IMG/VR virus record: IMGVR_UViG_3300011005_000053
Reading direction: 5' to 3' (one strand)
DNA from: a virus
DNA: 64,000 bases
Shown: positions 2,474 to 63,424 of the stretch, piece by piece
How the letters are laid out: each line of letters begins with the position of its first letter
How positions within the stretch are numbered: position 1 is the stretch's first letter
The notes under the pieces: model-generated
The model's database searches: none
What the model was told of the DNA's origin: nothing
The model's input: only the letters and a program-made list of their open reading frames with translations
Made by a program: the position numbers and the translations under genes

Positions 2474-4249
2474 TCAAAAATTCAAATTAGAAACCAATAA
2501 CGGCGCGTCCTCAAACGCACCCTCATCATCATTTAACATATCACGCGCCATCAGGCTGCCAAAGTATGCACCCATTTCAACAGAGCTCCAACGGTCCTTT
2601 GTGTTGTTACCCTGCTCAAACACGCGGATCAAACCGGTACTCGGGGCTCGGTCATACTGCAGCGTCGCAATCTCAGAGATCATAAGCATCGTCTCAAGAT
2701 ACGGCGCCTCATAACGCAGACGCACATCCGGGTCGATCGTCTTGTTATAGTCCGGAATAAACCGTCTGATTTCGTCCAGACCGTCGTCCTTCGGGATCAG
2801 GAACTCGATCGTCTTCTCCATAAGCATGGCCTTGAACGACATAGTCATCTCGGCATTCAGTTTGTTAGAAGCGTTAATAATAAACAAACACTCTTCTGCA
2901 TTAGGATTGTTGACACGCGCCGCAACCACTGGGTCATTCATACATCTTACCGGCGCATACTCCACGCCGCGATCAGGGTCAGCTAAGACCCTCGCCAGTG
3001 TGTCTACGATAGAAATTCCTATATTACGTCCGTCAACTACAAAGTATTGAGCTCCAAAATCGTGCCTGAGCTGTTGTAGTCGGACAGCTTGTGCACGGAT
3101 CTCTGTCCCTTTGAAAGCTTCAAGATACACAACCTGTACACGATAGAGCTTATGCCCGTCGTCTCCGACATCCGGCAGCAGCCGCATCAGCGAGAAGGCG
3201 CTGTTGTCGTTGCCGGATCGGTTCACAGCGGCAAAGTCCGCCGCCACAATCCGTATCTCGCCGTCCTGTTTTTGGATTGGGTTCAAAAGCTTGGCCTTTG
3301 TGACGAACTCATCTGTCGTCTTCGGGTAAAATGGTCTCGCGATAACCTGCCGGTTTCGCAGCTCCGCATACGTGAAGAACGACATGGACCCCTGCCGCAT
3401 CATGATGTTGTCGTATTCCGTCATACGCGTGATCGGGTCGGCGTCTCGGTACGCCGTAATCATCTGCTTGCGCGTACGGATTCCGTGTTTCAGGCAGATT
3501 GCGTAGTCCAGCGCAAAGAAGACCGAACCGTCTCCGTTCAGCATGCCGCGCATAGCGTTGACCGAAGCTTTCGACAACCAGTGCTGATCGTCCGTGCTGC
3601 TGGAGATCTGTATCTGCACTGGTTCCTCCACGAATTCCTTACGCCCATTGAACTCCGGCAGTCTTGCAAACTCCGGCTGTCTTGAAATCAGGAAGGGGAC
3701 AATGACCTTCTTCACGACTTCGCCGTCGTCCAGAATGTTGCGCCCCTCGTCGATCACGATGACGTGAGCACGATGTCCTCGCGCGGAGTCAGCCAGCGTA
3801 ACGATCTCGACGAAGCTTCCGTTGCGAAACGTCACCGACGTCTCGATTTGGTTATCCTTATAGCTCTTAATCTCGCGCCGCAGCATAGGAGACCACTCGC
3901 ATAACTCCTTGATGATCTTCTCCGATATGATCAGCGACGCCTGTTTACGCGTCGAACTGGCAATGATGACGTGTGTACCGGGGTATAAGATGCACCGGAT
4001 CACGCAGTACACAGCCAGAATAAAGCTCTTGGCCGCCGCTCGACTGGCCTCAATGATGGCGTTATCGGACTGAAAAAGTCCCCACAAAATGATCTCTTGG
4101 TACGGAAAAAGTTTAATTTTTAAGTATAATCTGGCAAAAATATGTGGATTTTTTCGAAAAAACTGGTTCCAATCGAGAAAAGAATGCAAATGACGTGTAT
4201 CGGCCAGCCATCCTGACATATTGGATGCCAGTTGCTGCTCATTCGCCAT
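2474..4249 (-). CDS. terminase large subunit
   Basis: 591 aa. Walker A-like IIEASRAAAKS and Walker B VIVIDEG in the N-terminal ATPase region, with a long C-terminal nuclease-like region. RBS GGAGGAAGAG precedes the ATG. Adjacent to the portal. Confidence 0.85.
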   Translation of the reverse strand: MANEQQLASNMSGWLADTRHLHSFLDWNQFFRKNPHIFARLYLKIKLFPYQEIILWGLFQSDNAIIEASRAAAKSFILAVYCVIRCILYPGTHVIIASSTRKQASLIISEKIIKELCEWSPMLRREIKSYKDNQIETSVTFRNGSFVEIVTLADSARGHRAHVIVIDEGRNILDDGEVVKKVIVPFLISRQPEFARLPEFNGRKEFVEEPVQIQISSSTDDQHWLSKASVNAMRGMLNGDGSVFFALDYAICLKHGIRTRKQMITAYRDADPITRMTEYDNIMMRQGSMSFFTYAELRNRQVIARPFYPKTTDEFVTKAKLLNPIQKQDGEIRIVAADFAAVNRSGNDNSAFSLMRLLPDVGDDGHKLYRVQVVYLEAFKGTEIRAQAVRLQQLRHDFGAQYFVVDGRNIGISIVDTLARVLADPDRGVEYAPVRCMNDPVVAARVNNPNAEECLFIINASNKLNAEMTMSFKAMLMEKTIEFLIPKDDGLDEIRRFIPDYNKTIDPDVRLRYEAPYLETMLMISEIATLQYDRAPSTGLIRVFEQGNNTKDRWSSVEMGAYFGSLMARDMLNDDEGAFEDAPLLVSNLNF

Positions 4250-5246
4250 TGATCTCTTCCTCCGTTAGACTGAACTCAGGGTCTTTATCATTCGTCTTGC
4301 CGAAGTAATTCAGCGTTGAACGGGTAAAGAACCGCTCGATATAGTCGCCGATCTGATCCACATCCTTGTACAGATCGGGCGTTTCATACAATTCAGCAGG
4401 CGAGAACCGCTCTACCTGCGCGATAAACTGTCCCCAGGTGGCCGCTTCATCGTCCGCGTAGTCCTCGGCGGTACGCGTTTTCAGTCCGCTGCTCTTCAAG
4501 GTATCAGAATACAGCTTGGTTAGCTTGGCATACGCGTCCGGGTCGTTGCGCGACTGCATCTGCAACAATTTAGTCGTGCAAAGGTCGCGCATCAGCGAAT
4601 CCTGAACGCCGTCCGCATTCTCAAACTGCTTCGTCAGCATCTCGTAATGCTGCATCAGGATCGCATATTCGTGAGGCCGATAGCCGATACCGAACAGCTC
4701 AACCGCTCGCGGATCACTCTCAGCTTCCTCGTCCGAGACGTTAGCCGGCTGCAGCGTCGATATCATGTCCGCAGCCGCAGCTCTGGCAGCCTCCTCCTCG
4801 CGCATCGTGTCAACATAGGTCTTGTCGGCATATGCCTTGGTGCGCGACTTCATGCACAAACGCCCAACCGGATTTTTCCCGGCAGCTGCCGCCAGCACAG
4901 CATCAATGATCTCGTCATTAATGTATAAGTCGAGCAATTGAGCTACGCGATGCAAAGCAATGCGCTCGCTGCCCGTATCGTCTGCTATGTGCTGATAGTA
5001 CATCTCCATCGCATCCGTGCTGACAGGGAAGAAGCCGTTGTTTGCCGCGAACAAATCTCCGTTTGTTTTCAGGAAGTTTCCTTTTTGATCCTGGAACTCC
5101 TTGAATGTGCAATGGCAATAATACGGCGGCTGCATGACTACATCCGGCCGTACGATCCTCTTCGTAAATTTCGGCGGTTCAAACGCCTCCGCCGTAGTCA
5201 TAGGCTCCTTGCGCGGCACTTCGCGCTTCGGAAGCTTCTTCGGCAA
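4239..5246 (-). CDS. putative terminase small subunit / DNA-packaging protein
   Basis: 335-aa ORF immediately upstream of the large terminase, overlapping it by 11 nt. Called from position only. The start is uncertain: TTG at 5246, or ATG at 5201 after AAGGAG. Confidence 0.3.
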   Translation of the reverse strand: MPKKLPKREVPRKEPMTTAEAFEPPKFTKRIVRPDVVMQPPYYCHCTFKEFQDQKGNFLKTNGDLFAANNGFFPVSTDAMEMYYQHIADDTGSERIALHRVAQLLDLYINDEIIDAVLAAAAGKNPVGRLCMKSRTKAYADKTYVDTMREEEAARAAAADMISTLQPANVSDEEAESDPRAVELFGIGYRPHEYAILMQHYEMLTKQFENADGVQDSLMRDLCTTKLLQMQSRNDPDAYAKLTKLYSDTLKSSGLKTRTAEDYADDEAATWGQFIAQVERFSPAELYETPDLYKDVDQIGDYIERFFTRSTLNYFGKTNDKDPEFSLTEEEINGE

Positions 5247-5287
5247 ACTATTCTTTGCGTTTGCTATAATCAGTCACCACCTTAAAA

Positions 5288-6346
5288 TCACAGGTCGCTA
5301 AGCGATTTCTTCTCAGTGCCCTTAATACCATCCGCCGTAAAGTAGTCAGAGAAACTCTCCGCGACGTCTGTGTCGTCGTATCGCGCAACCATAGACACAT
5401 CTTCCCACGCAACGATCTCCTTGATCACATTGTGCGGCACACCGCTCTTGCTCAGGCGAGTCGTATAGTAGTGCCGCAGCGCGTGCGAATAGATCTTGTC
5501 TGCGCGCCCGGTGCTCTCAAACAGCACGCGGCTGAACGTATGCGTCCACGAGTTAGCAATGTTGTGATCTCTTGGCTGCGTCGGGTCGTCCGGATCGGGG
5601 AACATCCACGGACTGTCGAGGCCGATTTGTTCCCTATACTGCATCCACGCGTCGAAATACGGCTGAAAGTCCTTCGCCAGCGTATAAAACACGATCTGTT
5701 TGCCGGTAACCCCGCGCCCCTTCGACTGGATCGTCTCTAGCGTAGAGTACAAAGCGCCGTTACAGATCAGATGATCTGGACCAAAATGCTCCGTCTTGAA
5801 GCGGAACAACTCACTTTTTCTGCGCCCGCTGAACGCAGCCAGCGCAAAGTAGCAAGCCTTTTCATACTGTTTTGCGTCCATCAGGGCAGACAACACGGTG
5901 TTGACCTCCTCGTCGCTGAGTACCGTCTTCTCCATAACCGGCGTATTTACCGGGTTTTCTATGCCGCGAATCGTAGGCTTGAAACTGCCGAATTCATCGG
6001 GCTCGTCCTCTGCCAGAATGTTGGACACATAATTGGACAGGCTGCTGATCACAGCCTTGATACGGCGCACTCTCGCCGCACTGTTGCCATTTTCGTTGAC
6101 CATCCAGTCCTGCATGGCCACCCATTCCCGCTTCTTAACGCTGACAAACTCCTTGTTGCCACAGCGTTCCAGCAGGAACACCATAATGATATCGAGGTCG
6201 TTATCGTACCCCTTAATGGTGTTCGGCGACCTCTGAATGGAGCGCAAGTAGGCCAGAAAGTCCCGTTTCAGCTCCATATTTTTCGGATTGACCGCCGCCA
6301 GCTTCTCCGGCGACGTAATCTTATTCTGTTGTACCTTGCGACCCAC
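5288..6346 (-). CDS. tyrosine recombinase (phage integrase family) A
   Basis: C-terminal catalytic signature HALRHYYTTRL and a terminal Tyr in VARYDD. The start is moved to GTG at 6346, 6 nt after GGGAGGTG; the track ATG at 6382 overlaps a plus-strand -35 box. Confidence 0.8.
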   Translation of the reverse strand: MGRKVQQNKITSPEKLAAVNPKNMELKRDFLAYLRSIQRSPNTIKGYDNDLDIIMVFLLERCGNKEFVSVKKREWVAMQDWMVNENGNSAARVRRIKAVISSLSNYVSNILAEDEPDEFGSFKPTIRGIENPVNTPVMEKTVLSDEEVNTVLSALMDAKQYEKACYFALAAFSGRRKSELFRFKTEHFGPDHLICNGALYSTLETIQSKGRGVTGKQIVFYTLAKDFQPYFDAWMQYREQIGLDSPWMFPDPDDPTQPRDHNIANSWTHTFSRVLFESTGRADKIYSHALRHYYTTRLSKSGVPHNVIKEIVAWEDVSMVARYDDTDVAESFSDYFTADGIKGTEKKSLSDL

Positions 6347-6367
6347 TTGTCTCACCTCCCTTTCCTT

Positions 6368-6397
6368 TTGACAAAACTGCAAGATTACGAGTATAAT
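6368..6397 (+). promoter_or_regulatory. sigma-A type promoter (TTGACA-18-TATAAT) driving a short plus-strand transcript
   Basis: TTGACA at 6368-6373 and TATAAT at 6392-6397, in the gap between two minus-strand genes. Confidence 0.5.
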
Positions 6398-6403
6398 GTG
6401 TAT

Positions 6404-6547
6404 ACGCCTTTATTTCATTGTGGATCAATAGACCCTGGTGTCTATTTGGTAACCCCGTGCAAGCGGGGCCCGATCTTACAATGAAATCTGTAAGGCTTTC
6501 TGAGGCGCCGCCGCGTGGTGTTACAGCACTACGCGGCGTTATTTTTT
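6404..6547 (+). ncRNA. candidate ~145-nt small RNA between the int and HU genes
   Basis: The promoter above is followed by hairpins (ATAGAC/GTCTAT and CCCCG/CGGGG) and an intrinsic terminator at 6510-6547. The only ORF here (6418-6654) reads through that terminator. Confidence 0.35.
6510..6547 (+). terminator. rho-independent terminator (GCCGCGT...ACGCGGC followed by TTATTTTTT)
   Basis: 7-bp GC-rich stem and a T-run on the plus strand, overlapping the HU stop codon. Confidence 0.55.
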
Positions 6548-6949
6548 CTCCTCTTCAACCGCTTCAGCATCATGTATTTCCTCGTCGATATACTCGACAT
6601 CGTGCGGCGCACTGCCGCGCACAGGCAGCTCGCTTTTACGGCCGCCCTTTTTAATAGGTTCTTCAATGATCGGCACGTCGCGCATGCTCCGATCGAGCTT
6701 TGCGCACGGCACAAAAGTCAGGTCCATATGCGGTTTAGATGTCATGATCTTGCCGGTAACCCAATCCTGATACCGTCTTGCCGGCGCATATTTCTGCCGA
6801 AAGCTGCCGAAACCGGCGATCTTGATCTCCTGGTTCACAGGAAGCTGTTCGCATAGGAACTCAAAAATGGATCGCACCCACGTGTCAGCCGTCTGCGCAC
6901 TGACGTTATACTGGCTCGCAAACAACCTTGAAAACTCCGTTGTATTCAT
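6539..6949 (-). CDS. hup: HU/IHF-family DNA-binding protein
   Basis: MNTTEFS...GFGSFRQKYAPARRYQDWVTGKIMTSKPHMDLTFVP is the typical HU arm region. Start ATG at 6947-6949 after AAGGTGGTGACGG; the track ORF carries 43 extra upstream codons. Confidence 0.8.
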   Translation of the reverse strand: MNTTEFSRLFASQYNVSAQTADTWVRSIFEFLCEQLPVNQEIKIAGFGSFRQKYAPARRYQDWVTGKIMTSKPHMDLTFVPCAKLDRSMRDVPIIEEPIKKGGRKSELPVRGSAPHDVEYIDEEIHDAEAVEEEKK

Positions 6950-6962
6950 ACCGTCACCACCT

Positions 6963-7751
6963 TTACACGTAGAATCCGACGGTCTGAATCTTTTTCTCGG
7001 CCCCGACAAGTACCAGCTTATACAGCTTGTCCGAGTTGGGCCTGTAGCCGTTATCCACAGCGTAGCCGCCGTAGTCAAGGAAGGACCCGGCGTTCACGGT
7101 CTCGGTGGATTTCAGCGTAATGTTTTTAAGGATGGGATTGTAAACCAGCTTGGCCCGAGGCTGATCCTTGGGAGAGTGGTCGTGTCCCCACACGGTAAAG
7201 TCGACGCCGTCGACAAAGTCCGCCGTGCTGTATGCCTTGGTGTCCTTGGCCTTATGCACGAGGTAGCCGACGTAGTGCGTCTGCGCGTTAGGGTCCTTGG
7301 CGCGTGTGCCAACACCGATATCAATAAAAGCAAAATGCGGACGGTAACGTTCCTTGATACCGGCAATGATACAGGCGTCGTACAGCGGGTACAACCCAGC
7401 CAACTTATAACTGCGGTTGCGCTCATGGTTGCCGTCGATCACAGCTATAGTGCGATCAGACAAATCACACAGCTGCTCGGCAAACCACTCCCGCTGCTCC
7501 TGCGGAGTGGAAGTCTGCGTAAACACATCGCTCTTACTACCAGGAGTCGCGTTTTCCATGGCGTCGCCCACAAAGATGCAGTAGCGGTTCGGCGCATCCA
7601 GAATCTCCTGTTTGACAGCGCCCCACTTTTCTTTGTTGAACTGCGCACTGCCCATATGCAAATCATGCAGCGCATACAGTTCGATGTAAGAGAACTCTTT
7701 CGGTGTGTTGAACAGAATAGGCGTATAATCACTTAACATTGGCCGCACCAC
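6963..7751 (-). CDS. calcineurin-like metallophosphoesterase
   Basis: Motifs GDAMENAT, GNHE and GHDH. Alternative start at 7739 (MLSDYTP). Confidence 0.75.
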   Translation of the reverse strand: MVRPMLSDYTPILFNTPKEFSYIELYALHDLHMGSAQFNKEKWGAVKQEILDAPNRYCIFVGDAMENATPGSKSDVFTQTSTPQEQREWFAEQLCDLSDRTIAVIDGNHERNRSYKLAGLYPLYDACIIAGIKERYRPHFAFIDIGVGTRAKDPNAQTHYVGYLVHKAKDTKAYSTADFVDGVDFTVWGHDHSPKDQPRAKLVYNPILKNITLKSTETVNAGSFLDYGGYAVDNGYRPNSDKLYKLVLVGAEKKIQTVGFYV

Positions 7752-59185: not shown

Positions 59186-60304
59186 ATGAAGTGCAAAGCT
59201 TGCAAACGCAAGATCGACGATAATTCTATCTTTTGCAATTGGTGTGGCGCCAGACAGGTCAAGGAAGAACAAGTGATCAAGATCCCGGAGCCGAAAAAAC
59301 TGGCAAGCGGGAAGTGGAATGTCTATCTGCGGGCGGAAGGGCAGAGCGTAACGGAAGACACCAAAGAGAAGTGTATCACGAAAGCAAGAGCGATCCGCGC
59401 AGGATTCTTGGAAGCCCAAAAGAGTGCGCCAAAGCTGACAATGGCAAAGGCAATCGAGAGGTACATTGCCGAGAATGACGCCGTGCTGTCTCCCGGTACG
59501 ATACGCGGGTACTTAGAAATAGGCCGCAATCGTTTCAAACCATATCATGATAAAGAACTGTCGTCTGTGAATTGGCAGGCGGCCATTAACCGAGAAGCAA
59601 AACTGTGCGGGCCGAAGACGCTCAAAAACGCTTGGGGTCTCGTTGCCCGTGTCATGCGCTGCAATCACATAACGCCGCCTGATGTCAGGCTTCCACAGGT
59701 AGTACCGACAGAACGTCCGTGGCTGAACTATGAACAGGTACTGCGGTTCGTGGAGGAGCTGCGGGGGACTCCGTGCGAATTTGCCGCGCTGCTTGCGCTT
59801 CATTCTTTGAGGCGTTCAGAGCTGCTTGCTATCACACCGTCCAAGATACGTGAAGACGGTATTCATGTCAGCGGATCGATGGTCATAGACCGCGACAACA
59901 ATCTTGTTGAAAAGAAAGCAAACAAGAACACTGCGTCAACACGCGTCGTTCCGATCATGATCCCGCGCCTGCAGGAGCTGATTGACGCGTCAGATAAAGG
60001 CCCTGACGAACCTTACGTTGACATTCGGTTCAATAAACTTTATAATCATATCAATACGGTGTGCAGACACGCCGGCCTGCCGGAGGTTGGCGTTCATGGA
60101 TTAAGAAGATCCTTTGCGTCGCTTGCCTACCATCTCGGGTGGCAAGAGCGTAAAACCATGGCGATTGGCGGATGGGATGATTGGGAGACTATGCATAAAA
60201 TATACATCCATCTCTCCTCAAAAGACCTGTCCGAAGCCGCCGATTCCATGCGTGCGTTTTACACATTTACAGACAAAATTACAGACGAATCCGCAAAGCC
60301 TTGA
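59186..60304 (+). CDS. tyrosine integrase C with N-terminal zinc ribbon
   Basis: CKACKRKIDDNSIFCNWCG. Catalytic HSLRRS and HGLRRSF, and the Tyr region. Its 3' end abuts an attP-like tRNA fragment. Confidence 0.8.
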   Translation: MKCKACKRKIDDNSIFCNWCGARQVKEEQVIKIPEPKKLASGKWNVYLRAEGQSVTEDTKEKCITKARAIRAGFLEAQKSAPKLTMAKAIERYIAENDAVLSPGTIRGYLEIGRNRFKPYHDKELSSVNWQAAINREAKLCGPKTLKNAWGLVARVMRCNHITPPDVRLPQVVPTERPWLNYEQVLRFVEELRGTPCEFAALLALHSLRRSELLAITPSKIREDGIHVSGSMVIDRDNNLVEKKANKNTASTRVVPIMIPRLQELIDASDKGPDEPYVDIRFNKLYNHINTVCRHAGLPEVGVHGLRRSFASLAYHLGWQERKTMAIGGWDDWETMHKIYIHLSSKDLSEAADSMRAFYTFTDKITDESAKP

Positions 60305-60330: not shown

Positions 60331-60358
60331 ACAGGTTCGACTCCCGTACCCTGCTCCA
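60331..60358 (+). other. attP-like core: 3' fragment of a tRNA gene (T arm plus acceptor plus CCA)
   Basis: ACAGGTTCGACTCCCGTACCCTGCTCCA has a T loop (TTCGACT), a 7-nt acceptor strand, a discriminator and CCA, but no 5' half. It sits immediately downstream of the integrase. Confidence 0.5.
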
Positions 60359-60403: not shown

Positions 60404-60854
60404 TTTTTAGGAACTTTTCGGAACATTTCAAAGCAAAACGTTTTTCAGAAATTGTAAAAAGTAGACTGAGAGTCTACTTCGTAGACCTATATTCTACCCC
60501 AATTTTACAGACGATTTTACAGACGAAACCAGATTTTGACAATTGCATGACTATCAGTACATACGCGAGTGTGTATGCAGTGATAATTATACAAGGCAAA
60601 AAAAATAGCCGCCCTGTCCGGGCGGCTAAAAATTTTTTAATAGCGAATTTCCGCAAGCAACTCCCAAAACATATCGTCCTGCTGTTGCGCGTTAATTTCA
60701 TCTGACACGGCTTATCCCTCCGCGTCATACTGTATCACTTTTCGAAGCACTCTCCAAGCAACAAAGTGGTAACAAAAAAAATAGGGCCATACCACAAATG
60801 TGATATGACCCTGAAAAACCCCAACGTGGTCCGCATCAAAGAGAGGCGTGTGGG

Positions 60855-61346
60855 TTAGGTGGAATGCGATGTGTGTTGTAGCACGTAAGAGAGGCATGCT
60901 TCTTCTAACAACTTAAAATCGCAGCTATTTCTCACCAAGCCCACATCTTTGCCAAGCAATACGCGTTTATATGTCCGCTCGGCGTCATGCATAATAGTAT
61001 CTTGATGCTCAATACAAAACCGCAACTCCTGCGAAAGCAAAGACCTACGTACGCGCACAATGTCTATTGGAATCGGAAACATATAGTTAAAACGCAACGA
61101 TCCAACAGCCTCTCCGTTTTCAGCACGGATCAAAATGTTATCTTTCTTTTGCTGCTTATATGACGACACTGGCACATAGTAGTCCACAGAGTCTATTTTT
61201 AGGACAATGCCGCACAAAAATTTAGGCTTGCGTTTCTGGCCGTAATCCATATCAGGGACCCGGCTAAAGCCACGGCTCGCCAACTCGACATCCTTTAGAT
61301 ACTGCACATAGTCCAGATCTACGGTGTAAAAATTTAATTTATCCAT
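60855..61346 (-). CDS. toxN: ToxN/AbiQ-family type III toxin (endoribonuclease)
   Basis: FYTVDLDYVQYLKDVE, FLCGIVLKIDSVDYYVPVSSYKQQ, NYMFPIPIDIV, KRVLLGKDVGLVRNSCDFKLLEEACLSY align with ToxN/AbiQ conserved blocks. Confidence 0.8.
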   Translation of the reverse strand: MDKLNFYTVDLDYVQYLKDVELASRGFSRVPDMDYGQKRKPKFLCGIVLKIDSVDYYVPVSSYKQQKKDNILIRAENGEAVGSLRFNYMFPIPIDIVRVRRSLLSQELRFCIEHQDTIMHDAERTYKRVLLGKDVGLVRNSCDFKLLEEACLSYVLQHTSHST

Positions 61347-61360
61347 TCATATTCTCTTTC

Positions 61361-61397
61361 TTCCAAAAAAAACGAGGGGGCGCATAAACGCCCCCTC
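61361..61397 (-). terminator. rho-independent terminator between the repeats and toxN (GAGGGGGCG...CGCCCCCTC plus T8 on the minus strand)
   Basis: 9-bp GC stem followed by TTTTTTTT on the minus strand. This is the canonical ToxI/ToxN attenuator position. Confidence 0.65.
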
Positions 61398-61403
61398 AAC
61401 ATT

Positions 61404-61478
61404 ATCATCCGCGCTTAAGGTGGCGGGGCACCTCGCATAAATGATCCGCGCTCAAAGTGGCGGGGCACTTCTCATTAA
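61404..61478 (-). ncRNA. ToxI-like antitoxin RNA: two tandem ~37-nt direct repeats
   Basis: ATCATCCGCGCTTAAGGTGGCGGGGCACCTCGCATAA and ATGATCCGCGCTCAAAGTGGCGGGGCACTTCTCATTAA, between the promoter and the terminator upstream of toxN. Confidence 0.6.
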
Positions 61479-61502
61479 AAGAGAAATATCTTTCTCGGCT
61501 AT

Positions 61503-61532
61503 AGTATATGCAAAAACTATGATAATGTCAAG
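61503..61532 (-). promoter_or_regulatory. promoter of the toxIN locus (TTGACA-18-TATACT on the minus strand)
   Basis: -35 at 61527-61532 and -10 at 61503-61508 (reverse complement). Confidence 0.6.
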
Positions 61533-61542
61533 TGGCTTGCAC

Positions 61543-61992
61543 TTATAGGAAGCTATGATCTTTCATACACTTCTCGTACTGTTTCAGAATCAGCCGCTTG
61601 GTTGACTCTGTCATATGGTTCTTAAACTCTGGATGTGCGACGCAATAGGCGTCGTATTCCGTGATACGCTGCACCACTGTGTCAAATCTGTCCTTGCTGT
61701 GCATTTTGTCCGGATTATAGATTAACTCATCACCGAACTCTAAAATGCTTTCCCTGGCCGATTTGGCGTCTCTCTCGTCAATGCTGCGTTTCAGCTCGAC
61801 AACTTCATCGCTCAGCGTGTCAACTTTATCAATAACTTCGCGGTTAATTGCTCTTCCGATGCGCCGAGCAAGCCATGACCACGGATTCAGTTTGATGGGA
61901 ATAATTTCGATTACGCCGGTTAACGCGATCAGTGTGGCCGACAGCCAGCCAATCATCTGCCCGACGGTCAACTCAGCAAGACCTCCCATCAT
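61543..61992 (-). CDS. membrane-anchored hypothetical protein
   Basis: N-terminal TM. 149 aa. Confidence 0.5.
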   Translation of the reverse strand: MMGGLAELTVGQMIGWLSATLIALTGVIEIIPIKLNPWSWLARRIGRAINREVIDKVDTLSDEVVELKRSIDERDAKSARESILEFGDELIYNPDKMHSKDRFDTVVQRITEYDAYCVAHPEFKNHMTESTKRLILKQYEKCMKDHSFL

Positions 61993-62324
61993 TCACCGTC
62001 TTTCTTGATCTCTGCATTTACGATTTTGCTCATAGCGCAAAGACCGTCGATCATGTCGCTGACAACATCCATATCAATCTCGTAGTTGATACTGTTGGCA
62101 GAGGCTTTGACCATAGCCATGACCCATTCTTTTCTGTCGGCGCCTTCGGAGAACTTAATCTCCGCCTGCTCCATATAGTTTCTGACCAGAGCCAGCAGGG
62201 AAGGCCAGTTCCGTTCTTTGACAGACTTCTTGACGTAGCGAACGAGCGCGACAATCAGCGGAATCACAACCGCCAAGCCAACGAGTATGGGAACAAGTGC
62301 AGTAGTCCAATCCATAATTTTCAC
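61989..62324 (-). CDS. holin-like protein
   Basis: N-terminal TM (ALVPILVGLAVVIPLIVALV) followed by a charged C-terminus. Sits in the lysis cassette. Confidence 0.5.
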   Translation of the reverse strand: MKIMDWTTALVPILVGLAVVIPLIVALVRYVKKSVKERNWPSLLALVRNYMEQAEIKFSEGADRKEWVMAMVKASANSINYEIDMDVVSDMIDGLCAMSKIVNAEIKKDGE

Positions 62325-62339
62325 TCCCTTGCAATTTCG

Positions 62340-62666
62340 TTATACAGGCGGCTCGTCCTCGGCCAACTGGAATCCGTTAGCCTGAGCCGTGGCATAAGTA
62401 ATGCCGGCTCCGTCTGGACCTTTATGCTCCACCTTACAGAGTGACAAGTACCCGGACAGACCGGCGGCGATAACCGCTTCGGCTAAACCGATAGCAGCAG
62501 TCAGATATGCAGCAGTGGCAGTAAATCCATGGCGGATGCAGAGGTAGATCAGCACGATACACTCCTGCGCAATCACAAACCCGCATAGGATCACGAGGAG
62601 CGTCAGCCATTTACTCCACTGTATTTTGTGTTTTTTACGCGGTTCTTTGCGGCGAAGCGGTTTCAT
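62340..62666 (-). CDS. three-TM small membrane protein (second holin-like)
   Basis: Hydrophobic segments. Immediately downstream of the endolysin. Confidence 0.45.
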   Translation of the reverse strand: MKPLRRKEPRKKHKIQWSKWLTLLVILCGFVIAQECIVLIYLCIRHGFTATAAYLTAAIGLAEAVIAAGLSGYLSLCKVEHKGPDGAGITYATAQANGFQLAEDEPPV

Positions 62667-63424
62667 TTCTTTGCCGCCCGCTTAATCATGATGGCGTCTT
62701 CGTACCGCATGGATACGGCCATCGGACGAGAGCCATCCGTGATGCCCATGGCCACAGCTTCATCGAGCTCGCCGCGAGCGTTCCAGTTCGTCGGTAGCTC
62801 ACGCTTTGCCAGAGCCGCGTTCATCTTGTTGAAGAGGCCGATAAGCTGCTCGTCAGAAGCCTCTTCGATAAACTTGTCGATGTTCACTTCCTCATCCTCC
62901 AATCTTGCGTTGACCTCAGCCGCGATCTGCGGATGAAGGTTATATAAATAGTCGCCCGGGCAGGGCTTATTGGCAAACCACCGATGGACGGTCATGTTCT
63001 GCTTGTCCACCTGCCCGATCAGCGACTTATCCCCCTGCCACAACAGCTTCTCAATGTCGTTGCGCTGACAGATATCCACCAATAGATCGACCAGGGCTTT
63101 ATAGGCCGCGTTGGTAATCTTGTACGGATGATAGTTGTCGCTCGACACTTCAATCGTAATCGCGCGGTTGTCGTTGGCGCTTGACGAAGAACACCAGGAC
63201 CGATCCTTTTCCTCAACGTACAATCCGATGCTGCCGTCGTAGCCAATACCATAGTTGCTTGACGCCTTGCGGTTAGCATCCGCAAACCACTGGCCTAATG
63301 CCCGCGCCGTGGTCTGCCCGGCAGTGCAGTGAATTGTCACCGTATCGATTTTGTGAGTTCTGGCCCCGGACTGGTTCGGGCTGATCTGAATCACATCGAC
63401 CAGCGAACTGTTTGTGTAGCCCAT
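62663..63424 (-). CDS. N-acetylmuramoyl-L-alanine amidase endolysin (PGRP/Amidase_2)
   Basis: IHCTAG, NYGIGYDG and HRWFANKPCPGD motifs. Confidence 0.75.
   Translation of the reverse strand: MGYTNSSLVDVIQISPNQSGARTHKIDTVTIHCTAGQTTARALGQWFADANRKASSNYGIGYDGSIGLYVEEKDRSWCSSSSANDNRAITIEVSSDNYHPYKITNAAYKALVDLLVDICQRNDIEKLLWQGDKSLIGQVDKQNMTVHRWFANKPCPGDYLYNLHPQIAAEVNARLEDEEVNIDKFIEEASDEQLIGLFNKMNAALAKRELPTNWNARGELDEAVAMGITDGSRPMAVSMRYEDAIMIKRAAKK

Follow-up and report, generated by a model that had tools for sequence, protein, structure and literature searches.

Type III toxin-antitoxin loci of the toxIN family are recognized by a published set of features in which tandem repeats are followed by a terminator and then by a toxin gene; the repeats are 31-62 nucleotides (nt) long in 1.9-5.6 copies and the toxins have a mean length of 168 amino acids (aa) (PMC3401426). 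The ToxIN systems of Pectobacterium atrosepticum plasmid pECA1039 and of Escherichia coli (structures 2xd0/2xdd and 7d8o) have the order promoter, repeats of about 36 nt, terminator, toxN. Their antitoxin RNA, ToxI, is an H-type pseudoknot with an S1 of four pairs, an S2 of four pairs and single-stranded tails, in which G5 and A19/A20 make tertiary contacts (PMC8860590). An equal order of elements was found in a 64,000-nt stretch of viral DNA from IMG/VR record IMGVR_UViG_3300011005_000053 (the window). This locus is probably a self-contained ToxIN-family type III module, with its own promoter and two terminators, near the phage attachment site (attP) of a temperate phage. A first-pass annotation made from the sequence alone had called it a complete ToxIN/AbiQ-like locus at 60855-61532, where its elements were all recovered. 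The family, predicted fold, catalytic residues, architecture and covariation-supported pseudoknot described below agree with that call. Coordinates are positions in the window, where toxIN is read on the minus strand, and its elements are as follows.

61531-61503, minus strand: putative sigma-70-type toxIN promoter, with the -35 element TTGACA at 61531-61526, a 17-nt spacer and the -10 element TATACT at 61508-61503.
61496-61481, minus strand: 5' leader hairpin GAGAAA-GAUA-UUUCUC, read from the sequence, near the predicted transcript start.
61477-61441 and 61440-61404, minus strand: antitoxin repeats 1 and 2, direct and in tandem, 37 nt each, from the repeat search (84% identity).
61475-61439, minus strand: ToxI-like repeat 1 in the AUG register, 'internal' type, 37 nt, from the repeat search and the covariance model (49.9 bits).
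61438-61403, minus strand: ToxI-like repeat 2 in the AUG register, 'terminal' type, 36 nt, from the repeat search and the covariance model, with G-C at pair 7-21.
61477-61473, 61440-61436 and 61404-61400, minus strand: junction motifs W-A-U-G (the third UAAUG), by analogy presumed ToxN processing sites.
61398-61365, minus strand: intrinsic terminator between toxI and toxN, with an 11-bp stem at 61398-61373 (8 G-C pairs) and U8.
61346-60855, minus strand: toxN open reading frame (ORF), 163 aa, predicted ToxN/AbiQ-family endoribonuclease toxin by profile, fold and alignment.
60812-60774, minus strand: terminator 3' of toxN, with a 13-bp stem and T8, beyond the coordinates of the first-pass annotation.

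The toxN ORF was matched by the Pfam model PF13958 ToxN_toxin with E=2.8e-29 and 102.8 bits (cutoff 25), in an alignment that covers ORF residues 4-154 of 163 and profile positions 1-159 of 159, and by the PADLOC AbiQ model at 1.1e-24. Its phmmer sequence matches in the Protein Data Bank (PDB) were AbiQ (4glk), ToxN_Bt (4ato), ToxN_Pa (2xd0) and ToxN_Ec (7d8o). An AlphaFold2 model built from 19 sequences had a mean predicted local distance difference test score (pLDDT) of 88.4 and a predicted template modeling score (pTM) of 0.85, and Foldseek placed the same four structures at the top, with template modeling (TM) scores of 0.79 for 4ato, 0.73 for 4glk and 0.68 for both 2xd0 and 7d8o; lower matches were CptN (4rmo) at 0.49 and then MazF at about 0.3. 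By profile and modeled structure, then, the ORF is a ToxN/AbiQ protein with the ToxN fold, as the profile and fold searches proposed in the first-pass annotation bear out for its assignment of the gene to this family. An identity as MazF was rejected on fold and profile scores. CptIN and TenpIN follow the same logic as this locus, combining an RNase toxin with RNA repeats and a terminator; their published repeat lengths are 40-48 nt and 39-57 nt, respectively (PMC3401426). They were rejected as well: only the ToxN model of Pfam matches, the TM score to CptN is low, and the 37-nt repeat lies below both ranges.

The catalytic residues given for the E. coli ToxIN structure are Lys33, Thr52, Ser53 and Lys55 (PMC8860590). 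When the predicted protein was aligned with ToxN_Pa of pECA1039, K42, S61, S62 and K64 stood at these positions, with Ser in place of Thr52, and K42 and S62 are invariant within the clade to which this toxN belongs. The window ToxN has about 20-30% identity to the pECA1039 and E. coli proteins, with which it shares the fold and the aligned K/T-S/S/K residues. It differs from them in lacking the loop that bears Tyr110, and in having Gln for W57 and Glu for Q117. The settings also differ, since those systems are enterobacterial and lie on a small plasmid, whereas the window locus has a probably Clostridial host and a phage carrier. The best matches in structure and among the PDB sequences were ToxN of the Bacillus thuringiensis pAW63 ToxIN system and AbiQ of the Lactococcus lactis AbiQ/antiQ system, both of Firmicutes and plasmid-borne, at 22-23% protein identity. 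In both, the stretch from the M-x-P motif to the next helix has its longer form, and in the window ToxN it is shortened. Their repeats are few, about 2.8-2.9.

About 100 loci with toxN relatives were gathered for comparison. Roughly 40 homologous loci from Clostridia share the layout of promoter, leader hairpin, 37-nt repeats, terminator and toxN. Because this repeat family is present upstream of so many homologous toxin genes, the window repeats are not a chance occurrence. A covariance model built from the relatives found exactly two units in the window and no others. In the homologous loci, TTGACA...TATAAT is found at the equivalent place upstream of the repeats, the terminator between repeats and toxN is kept at its equivalent place, and most have a leader hairpin at the equivalent position with a different sequence; we infer that this hairpin stabilizes the antitoxin RNA.

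Two alignments were used to examine the fold of the repeat. The first held 67 distinct units and was nearly gapless, and two interleaved helices, drawn from the window repeats, were laid over it. In these units 87% of the cells were paired, compared with 32-46% when the 3' partners were slid by 1-3 columns, and the covariation score was 0.42, compared with 0.05-0.14 in the slid controls. The second alignment was gathered with a model that held stem 2 only and gave 119 matches, of which 100 were distinct. Here 88% were paired against 33-56% in the slid controls, and the covariation score was 0.45 (slid controls from 0.04). As stem 1 was outside the search model, its support in this second alignment is not circular. 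Changes on both sides were seen in 8 of 11 pairs, and none of 500 shuffles reached the observed values. The stems of the window repeats, assigned by covariation, are these.

61471-61466 with 61459-61454, minus strand: stem 1 of repeat 1.
61463-61460 with 61449-61446, minus strand: stem 2 of repeat 1.
61434-61429 with 61422-61417, minus strand: stem 1 of repeat 2.
61426-61423 with 61412-61409, minus strand: stem 2 of repeat 2.

Both window repeats form all core pairs, with core stems of the AGGU/ACCU type (stem 1) and CCGC/GCGG (stem 2). Thus, each unit is predicted to fold as a ToxI-like H-type pseudoknot, a statement that we restrict to four core pairs per stem. The outermost pairs as drawn (columns 5-23, 10-18 and 13-32) were discarded, being unpaired in at least one third of the units; column 10 corresponds to G5 of ToxI, a tertiary-contact base and not a Watson-Crick partner. 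The columns that match G5 and A20 of ToxI are at least 90% conserved among the units. Repeat 2 was compared with the Pectobacterium ToxI repeat, whose sequence was confirmed in pECA1039 (100% identity). The two agree in 25 of 38 aligned columns (66%), a value reached by none of 1000 shuffles, and share the pattern AGGUG...GC.ACCUU.AAG.GC.G. Repeats 1 and 2 of the window differ from each other at six positions, two of which make up a compensatory change from A-U to G-C in stem 1.

At the boundary between units, A-U-G is invariant in the 67 units of the first alignment, and W-A-U-G is found at all three boundaries in the window. The corresponding motif in pECA1039 and E. coli is the A-rich AA/AU or GAA/AU. 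The ToxN proteins of P. atrosepticum, of E. coli and of B. thuringiensis cut in the single-stranded overhangs or tails (PMC8860590). By analogy, ToxN processing in the window RNA would occur at or beside the W-A-U-G motif.

The array has two repeats of 37 nt where pECA1039 has 5.5 of 36 nt, so that the remark in the first-pass annotation that the repeats are fewer than in ToxI holds for Pectobacterium; yet two copies lie inside the family range, and with a 37-nt repeat and a 163-aa toxin the locus has the published arrangement with all values in or near those of the family. A two-copy array is therefore unremarkable for toxIN. Within the Clostridial clade, three repeats were found in 32 of the 44 loci with matches, and two, as in the window, in L024 and L039. 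The last repeat of an array tends to be of a distinct type: pair 7-21 is G-C in the last repeat of 29 of 38 arrays and A-U in 67 of 69 internal repeats, and the tail ends in UA in the last repeat of 36 of the 38. We know of no published description of a distinct last-repeat type. The window array consists of one unit of the internal type and one of the terminal type, from which it follows that an internal unit has been lost relative to its kin. In the arrays of L005-L045, the last repeat often has a different stem 2 (CCAC/GUGG versus CUGC/GCAG), its fold being preserved through compensatory changes. In many arrays the first unit has no AUG boundary motif on its 5' side.

The toxN relatives at 50-68% identity come from Clostridia metagenome-assembled genomes (MAGs) of Lachnospiraceae, Oscillospiraceae, Hungatella and others. 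The nearest of them form an uncharacterized clade (L005, L013 and L021; ToxN 58-68% identical) that shares with the window the repeat family, leader hairpin, terminator and spacing, as well as identical position-specific types, with A-U at pair 7-21 in internal repeats and, in the last, G-C and a tail ending in UA. In contrast to the window, nearly all of its members have three repeats and they keep a 10-aa segment of ToxN that is deleted in the window. The relatives examined lie in toxin-antitoxin and defence islands with Fic, RelB/YoeB and ParE, whereas the window copy is phage-borne. The closest loci, L005-L010 (at about 2700-7450; 68% identity), are in a dense island with RelB/YoeB, two Fic genes, a DUF6290/ParE pair and HTH regulators; the island adjoins a gene for a 2000-aa SNF2-type helicase, which suggests a conjugative or other mobile element. 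ToxN homologs at 45-63% identity were also seen in the archaeon Methanolapillus africanus (L047) and in MAGs of Bacteroidales and Bacteroides (L026 and L064), which may reflect horizontal transfer or binning contamination; upstream of the L047 toxN, no clear repeat array emerged from a simple scan.

The signals around the repeats were examined individually. The boxes TTGACA and TATACT, as given in the first-pass annotation, were recovered by a consensus scan as a match at 11 of 12 positions (a pattern match only), with a spacer of 17 nt and not the 18 given there. Its two direct repeats of about 37 nt and the strong terminator between the repeats and the toxin gene were likewise found. Tandem Repeats Finder, run on 61300-61600, reported no repeats because the array has two copies only. 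The toxIN unit has a G+C content of 44%, compared with 50.5% for the window (6.5th percentile). A 17-nt inverted repeat, 82% complementary with its arms 110 nt apart (61392-61408 and 61519-61535), joins the -35 region of the promoter to the final part of repeat 2 and the terminator's foot. It has no obvious role in the RNA because the -35 region is untranscribed, and it may be a chance occurrence or a protein-binding site.

The carrier is a large temperate phage, represented by a contig of 94.8 kb that encodes a terminase, DNA polymerase, primase-helicase, NrdD and four tRNAs, and toxIN lies at the end of its genome. The flanking features are listed here.

59186-60304, plus strand: tyrosine integrase by Pfam (Phage_integrase) and PHROG (PHROG 1 integrase, 2.8e-32), its gene converging with toxIN.
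60334-60358, plus strand: candidate attP core of 25 nt, GGTTCGACTCCCGTACCCTGCTCCA, equal to the 3' end of tRNA-Gly(CCC).
61543-63424, minus strand: lysis cassette, upstream of toxIN, from profile matches.
61543-61992, minus strand: 149-aa phrog_37604 protein of the lysis cassette.
61989-62324, minus strand: holin-like ORF of the lysis cassette.
Between the endolysin and the holin-like ORF, minus strand: 108-aa ORF of the lysis cassette.
62663-63424, minus strand: amidase endolysin of the lysis cassette.

The candidate attP core begins 30 nt past the integrase stop codon and lies about 0.5 kb from the toxN stop codon. The 25-mer GGTTCGACTCCCGTACCCTGCTCCA had at least 120 exact matches in metagenome contigs; in 27 of the 31 loci checked it was the exact 3' end of a tRNA-Gly(CCC) gene, and identity to the window ended exactly at both of its borders. 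Relatives of the integrase have a tRNA 3' end directly downstream. From these sequence matches, it is to all appearances a classical attP core that targets tRNA-Gly(CCC). The placement of toxIN next to the attachment site, between the integrase and the lysis genes (holin to endolysin, 61989-63424), was thus correctly given in the first-pass annotation. An Rfam tRNA scan of the candidate returned only tRNA-Sec (E=3.9), and the matter was settled by the exact-match scan of the metagenomes together with ARAGORN. Among the matches listed for the 25-mer there was no integrated copy or lysogen junction of the window phage.

Several further observations were made in this region. Integrases that are 28-39% identical adjoin an identical 25-nt core in five other loci (L153, L157, L173, L228 and L235), and tRNA-Gly(CCC) therefore appears as a target shared by mobile elements of the gut. 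The motif (A/T)TTACAGAC(G/A)A is present as short direct repeats at the 3' end of the integrase gene (60270-60295) and twice in tandem in the spacer between attP and toxN (60500-60530); these may be arm-type binding sites for the integrase. Far from the integrase at attP, a second ORF resembling a tyrosine recombinase (5288-6382, minus strand; PHROG 1 integrase, 1.2e-31) may represent a Xer-like resolvase or another integration module. A 23-codon ORF (60637-60708, minus strand), MSDEINAQQQDDMFWELLAEIRY, lies in the interval from the toxN terminator to the attP region, with a GTG start and a GGAGGG Shine-Dalgarno sequence 7 nt upstream, and is directly followed by a strong bidirectional terminator at 60606-60628. 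No terminator was found between the lysis cassette and toxI. The 149-aa phrog_37604 protein directly follows the endolysin in two other phage contigs. When close relatives of the phage were sought in IMG/VR through the integrase and the 149-aa protein, only non-syntenic matches of 28-58% identity were obtained.

A single phage-borne toxIN was on record in 2012 (PMC3401426), and a survey of 2025 reported one phage-borne ToxIN, with no others in bacteriophages before its own tenpIN matches (PMC12283969). A megablast search with the toxIN locus against 50,697 phage records gave no match, and the window ToxN as query found only three homologs in these records, all in Clostridial phage-plasmids or phages. 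The phage-borne homologs, at 26-45% identity, are those of Clostridium botulinum phage D-1873, of Clostridioides phage-plasmids, and of L091 and L001 from IMG/VR. The isolates (D-1873 and those of Clostridioides) are phage-plasmids of about 130 kb, while the window phage is predicted to integrate at a tRNA gene. L091 (UViG_3300045988_153380) is a distantly related phage contig of 107 kb whose ToxN belongs to another sub-clade and is 45% identical to that of the window. Between its positions 3006 and 8441, a lysozyme and then small membrane proteins come before toxIN, after which there are a large serine recombinase, convergent with it, and a dUTPase. The window mirrors this order: its endolysin and then small proteins precede toxIN, and the tyrosine integrase, an ORF of 95 aa and dUTPase follow; the recombinases are of different kinds. 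The L091 toxIN has two divergent 34-nt repeats, and the window also has two repeats. The slot between lysis genes and integrase appears to be a recurrent cargo site. The low G+C content, the presence of toxN kin in bacterial islands and the L091 toxIN in an equivalent slot all fit an exchangeable cargo site.

Toxicity, RNA processing, neutralization, trigger and biological role are inferred from the family, by analogy with which the module would work as follows. From the promoter, constitutive transcription would give a short precursor with the two units of 36 and 37 nt, most transcripts ending at the terminator and a minority reading through, so that ToxN is expressed. ToxN would cleave this RNA at the conserved W-A-U-G junctions on either side of each unit, and each freed unit would fold into its pseudoknot and bind ToxN through its single-stranded tails in a closed, inactive RNA-protein complex (a ring). 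If transcription of the locus stopped, for instance because a superinfecting phage shut it off or the prophage was lost, the labile RNA would decay, and the released ToxN would cleave cellular and viral RNA. In the lysogen, toxIN would be the first unit beside the rebuilt tRNA-Gly gene, and it would bring about abortive infection of other phages, a penalty for loss of the prophage, or both. A role in superinfection exclusion or abortive infection, as proposed in the first-pass annotation, is plausible.

At the level of predicted features, everything in a ToxIN locus that can be checked in silico was found here except the RNA-contact segment that bears Tyr110, the site of the following feature.

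61047/61046, minus strand: point in toxN, between Arg100 and Arg101, at which 10 codons are deleted in frame, from alignments.

This deletion and several lesser observations weigh against the reading as a ToxIN module. The relatives carry T-I-A-x-E-P-D-x-A-Y where the window ToxN has its 10-residue gap. The segment concerned has 24 residues in 116 of the 120 closest homologs (three could not be measured with the pattern used) and 14 in the window ToxN alone. In a diverse family set, made up of 119 full-length representatives drawn from 1.84 billion cluster representatives together with ToxN_Pa, the equivalent segment has 22-28 residues in 119 of 120 members and 13 in the window ToxN; the one other short segment, of 16 residues, may be an alignment artefact. 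Lost with the deleted piece are four columns whose conservation in the clade is 90% or more, and the Tyr that aligns with ToxN Tyr110. For the E. coli complex, Tyr110 is named along with Trp57, Phe88 and Gln117 as a residue that serves to "hold the RNA in place", and residue 108 is named as one of the ToxI contacts (PMC8860590). This RNA-holding set is not kept in the window ToxN, in which W57, F88 and Q117 align with Q66, Y88 and E107, and the Tyr110 equivalent is deleted. The loop deletion makes the activity of the toxin uncertain, and the shortened protein may be weakened or altered in specificity. The confidence of the AlphaFold2 model says nothing on activity. The toxN ribosome-binding site is purine-rich but weak, and the deletion variant is known from a single metagenome contig, so that a rare or defective variant is possible. 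Finally, in Rfam 15 the individual repeats matched no family at E<=10. Over the toxI region, the sole Rfam match was L20_leader at 61362-61476; its score was 20.4 bits (E=0.55), where the gathering score is 58.7, and most of it comes from the terminator. Other matches near the locus (suhB and STnc240) were set aside as far below their gathering scores and mostly on terminator hairpins, as was a non-significant abiF RNA match just past the toxN stop codon (E=7.4).

In a rival reading, the phage captured a toxIN locus whose toxin has since been crippled by the deletion, and the two ToxI-like units act as a decoy that neutralizes same-clade ToxN proteins of Clostridial hosts, as a form of counter-defence. 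Such a use of ToxI is reportedly not without parallel, a pseudo-ToxI or captured ToxI in Pectobacterium phage PhiTE being said to have been described by Blower and colleagues in PLoS Genetics in 2012. In its favour, the deleted segment has a near-constant length in the family and contains the RNA-contact positions 108 and 110, and nothing is missing from the promoter, the two repeats or the pseudoknot pairs. MAGs of Clostridia, the likely host range, commonly carry repeats and toxins that closely resemble these. Since no terminator separates toxI from the late lysis operon, ToxI would also be made by late transcription, which would then end at the toxI terminator. However, toxN is full-length and in frame, and its catalytic residues and every clade-invariant column outside the deletion are kept, which argues for continued selection on the protein through most of its history. 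In addition, L091, a second phage, has an undeleted toxN at the equivalent position. We therefore regard a decoy as possible and, on present evidence, unlikely.

A related proposal, which we hold to be rather improbable, is that the locus is a ToxIN adapted to the phage. After capture at the attP-proximal cargo site it would have been trimmed to one internal and one terminal repeat and would have lost the Tyr110 RNA-clamp loop, leaving either an attenuated or respecified toxin or a dead toxin with a live antitoxin. The phage would then be the one to profit, with the locus serving as an RNA decoy against host ToxIN systems of this Clostridial clade or as a low-toxicity means of prophage addiction, and not in classical abortive infection by the host.

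It is quite improbable that ToxN serves the lytic programme of the phage and not the defence of the lysogen, being released late in infection from the tail of the lysis operon, for instance to degrade host mRNA or to time late events. In keeping with such a role, toxIN is on the same strand as the lysis cassette and immediately downstream of it, with the uninterrupted junction already described, and the adjacency of lysis genes and toxIN recurs in L091. Against it, toxIN possesses a near-consensus promoter and has terminators that insulate it, and cargo expressed in lysogeny is typically placed next to attP, where the prophage ends; moreover, we know of no precedent for a lytic-programme role in the ToxIN family. 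That the repeats are incidental, for instance a slippage duplication in a 5' untranslated region, and the ORF a stand-alone RNase or an inactive remnant, deserves hardly any credence: although there are only two copies, with Tandem Repeats Finder silent and Rfam giving no family, the repeat family has an identical position and register upstream of the roughly 40 homologous toxin genes, and the compensatory changes that preserve two interleaved stems contradict it.

The preferred reading thus remains that of a ToxIN module carried near the attP of a temperate phage. Apart from the loop deletion and the repeat types of its clade, the locus is ordinary among ToxIN systems, and the understanding of that family is unchanged by it. 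The comparative set gives a covariation-supported ToxI structure for an uncharacterized Clostridial clade and a differentiation by position that sets off the last repeat of each array. The natural deletion of the RNA-contact loop would be a handy tool for probing the way in which ToxN grips its RNA. The window locus, taken with L091, L001 and the other phage-borne copies, indicates that ToxIN recurs in large temperate phages of gut Clostridia, and that in phages it recurs at the junction of lysis genes and integrase.

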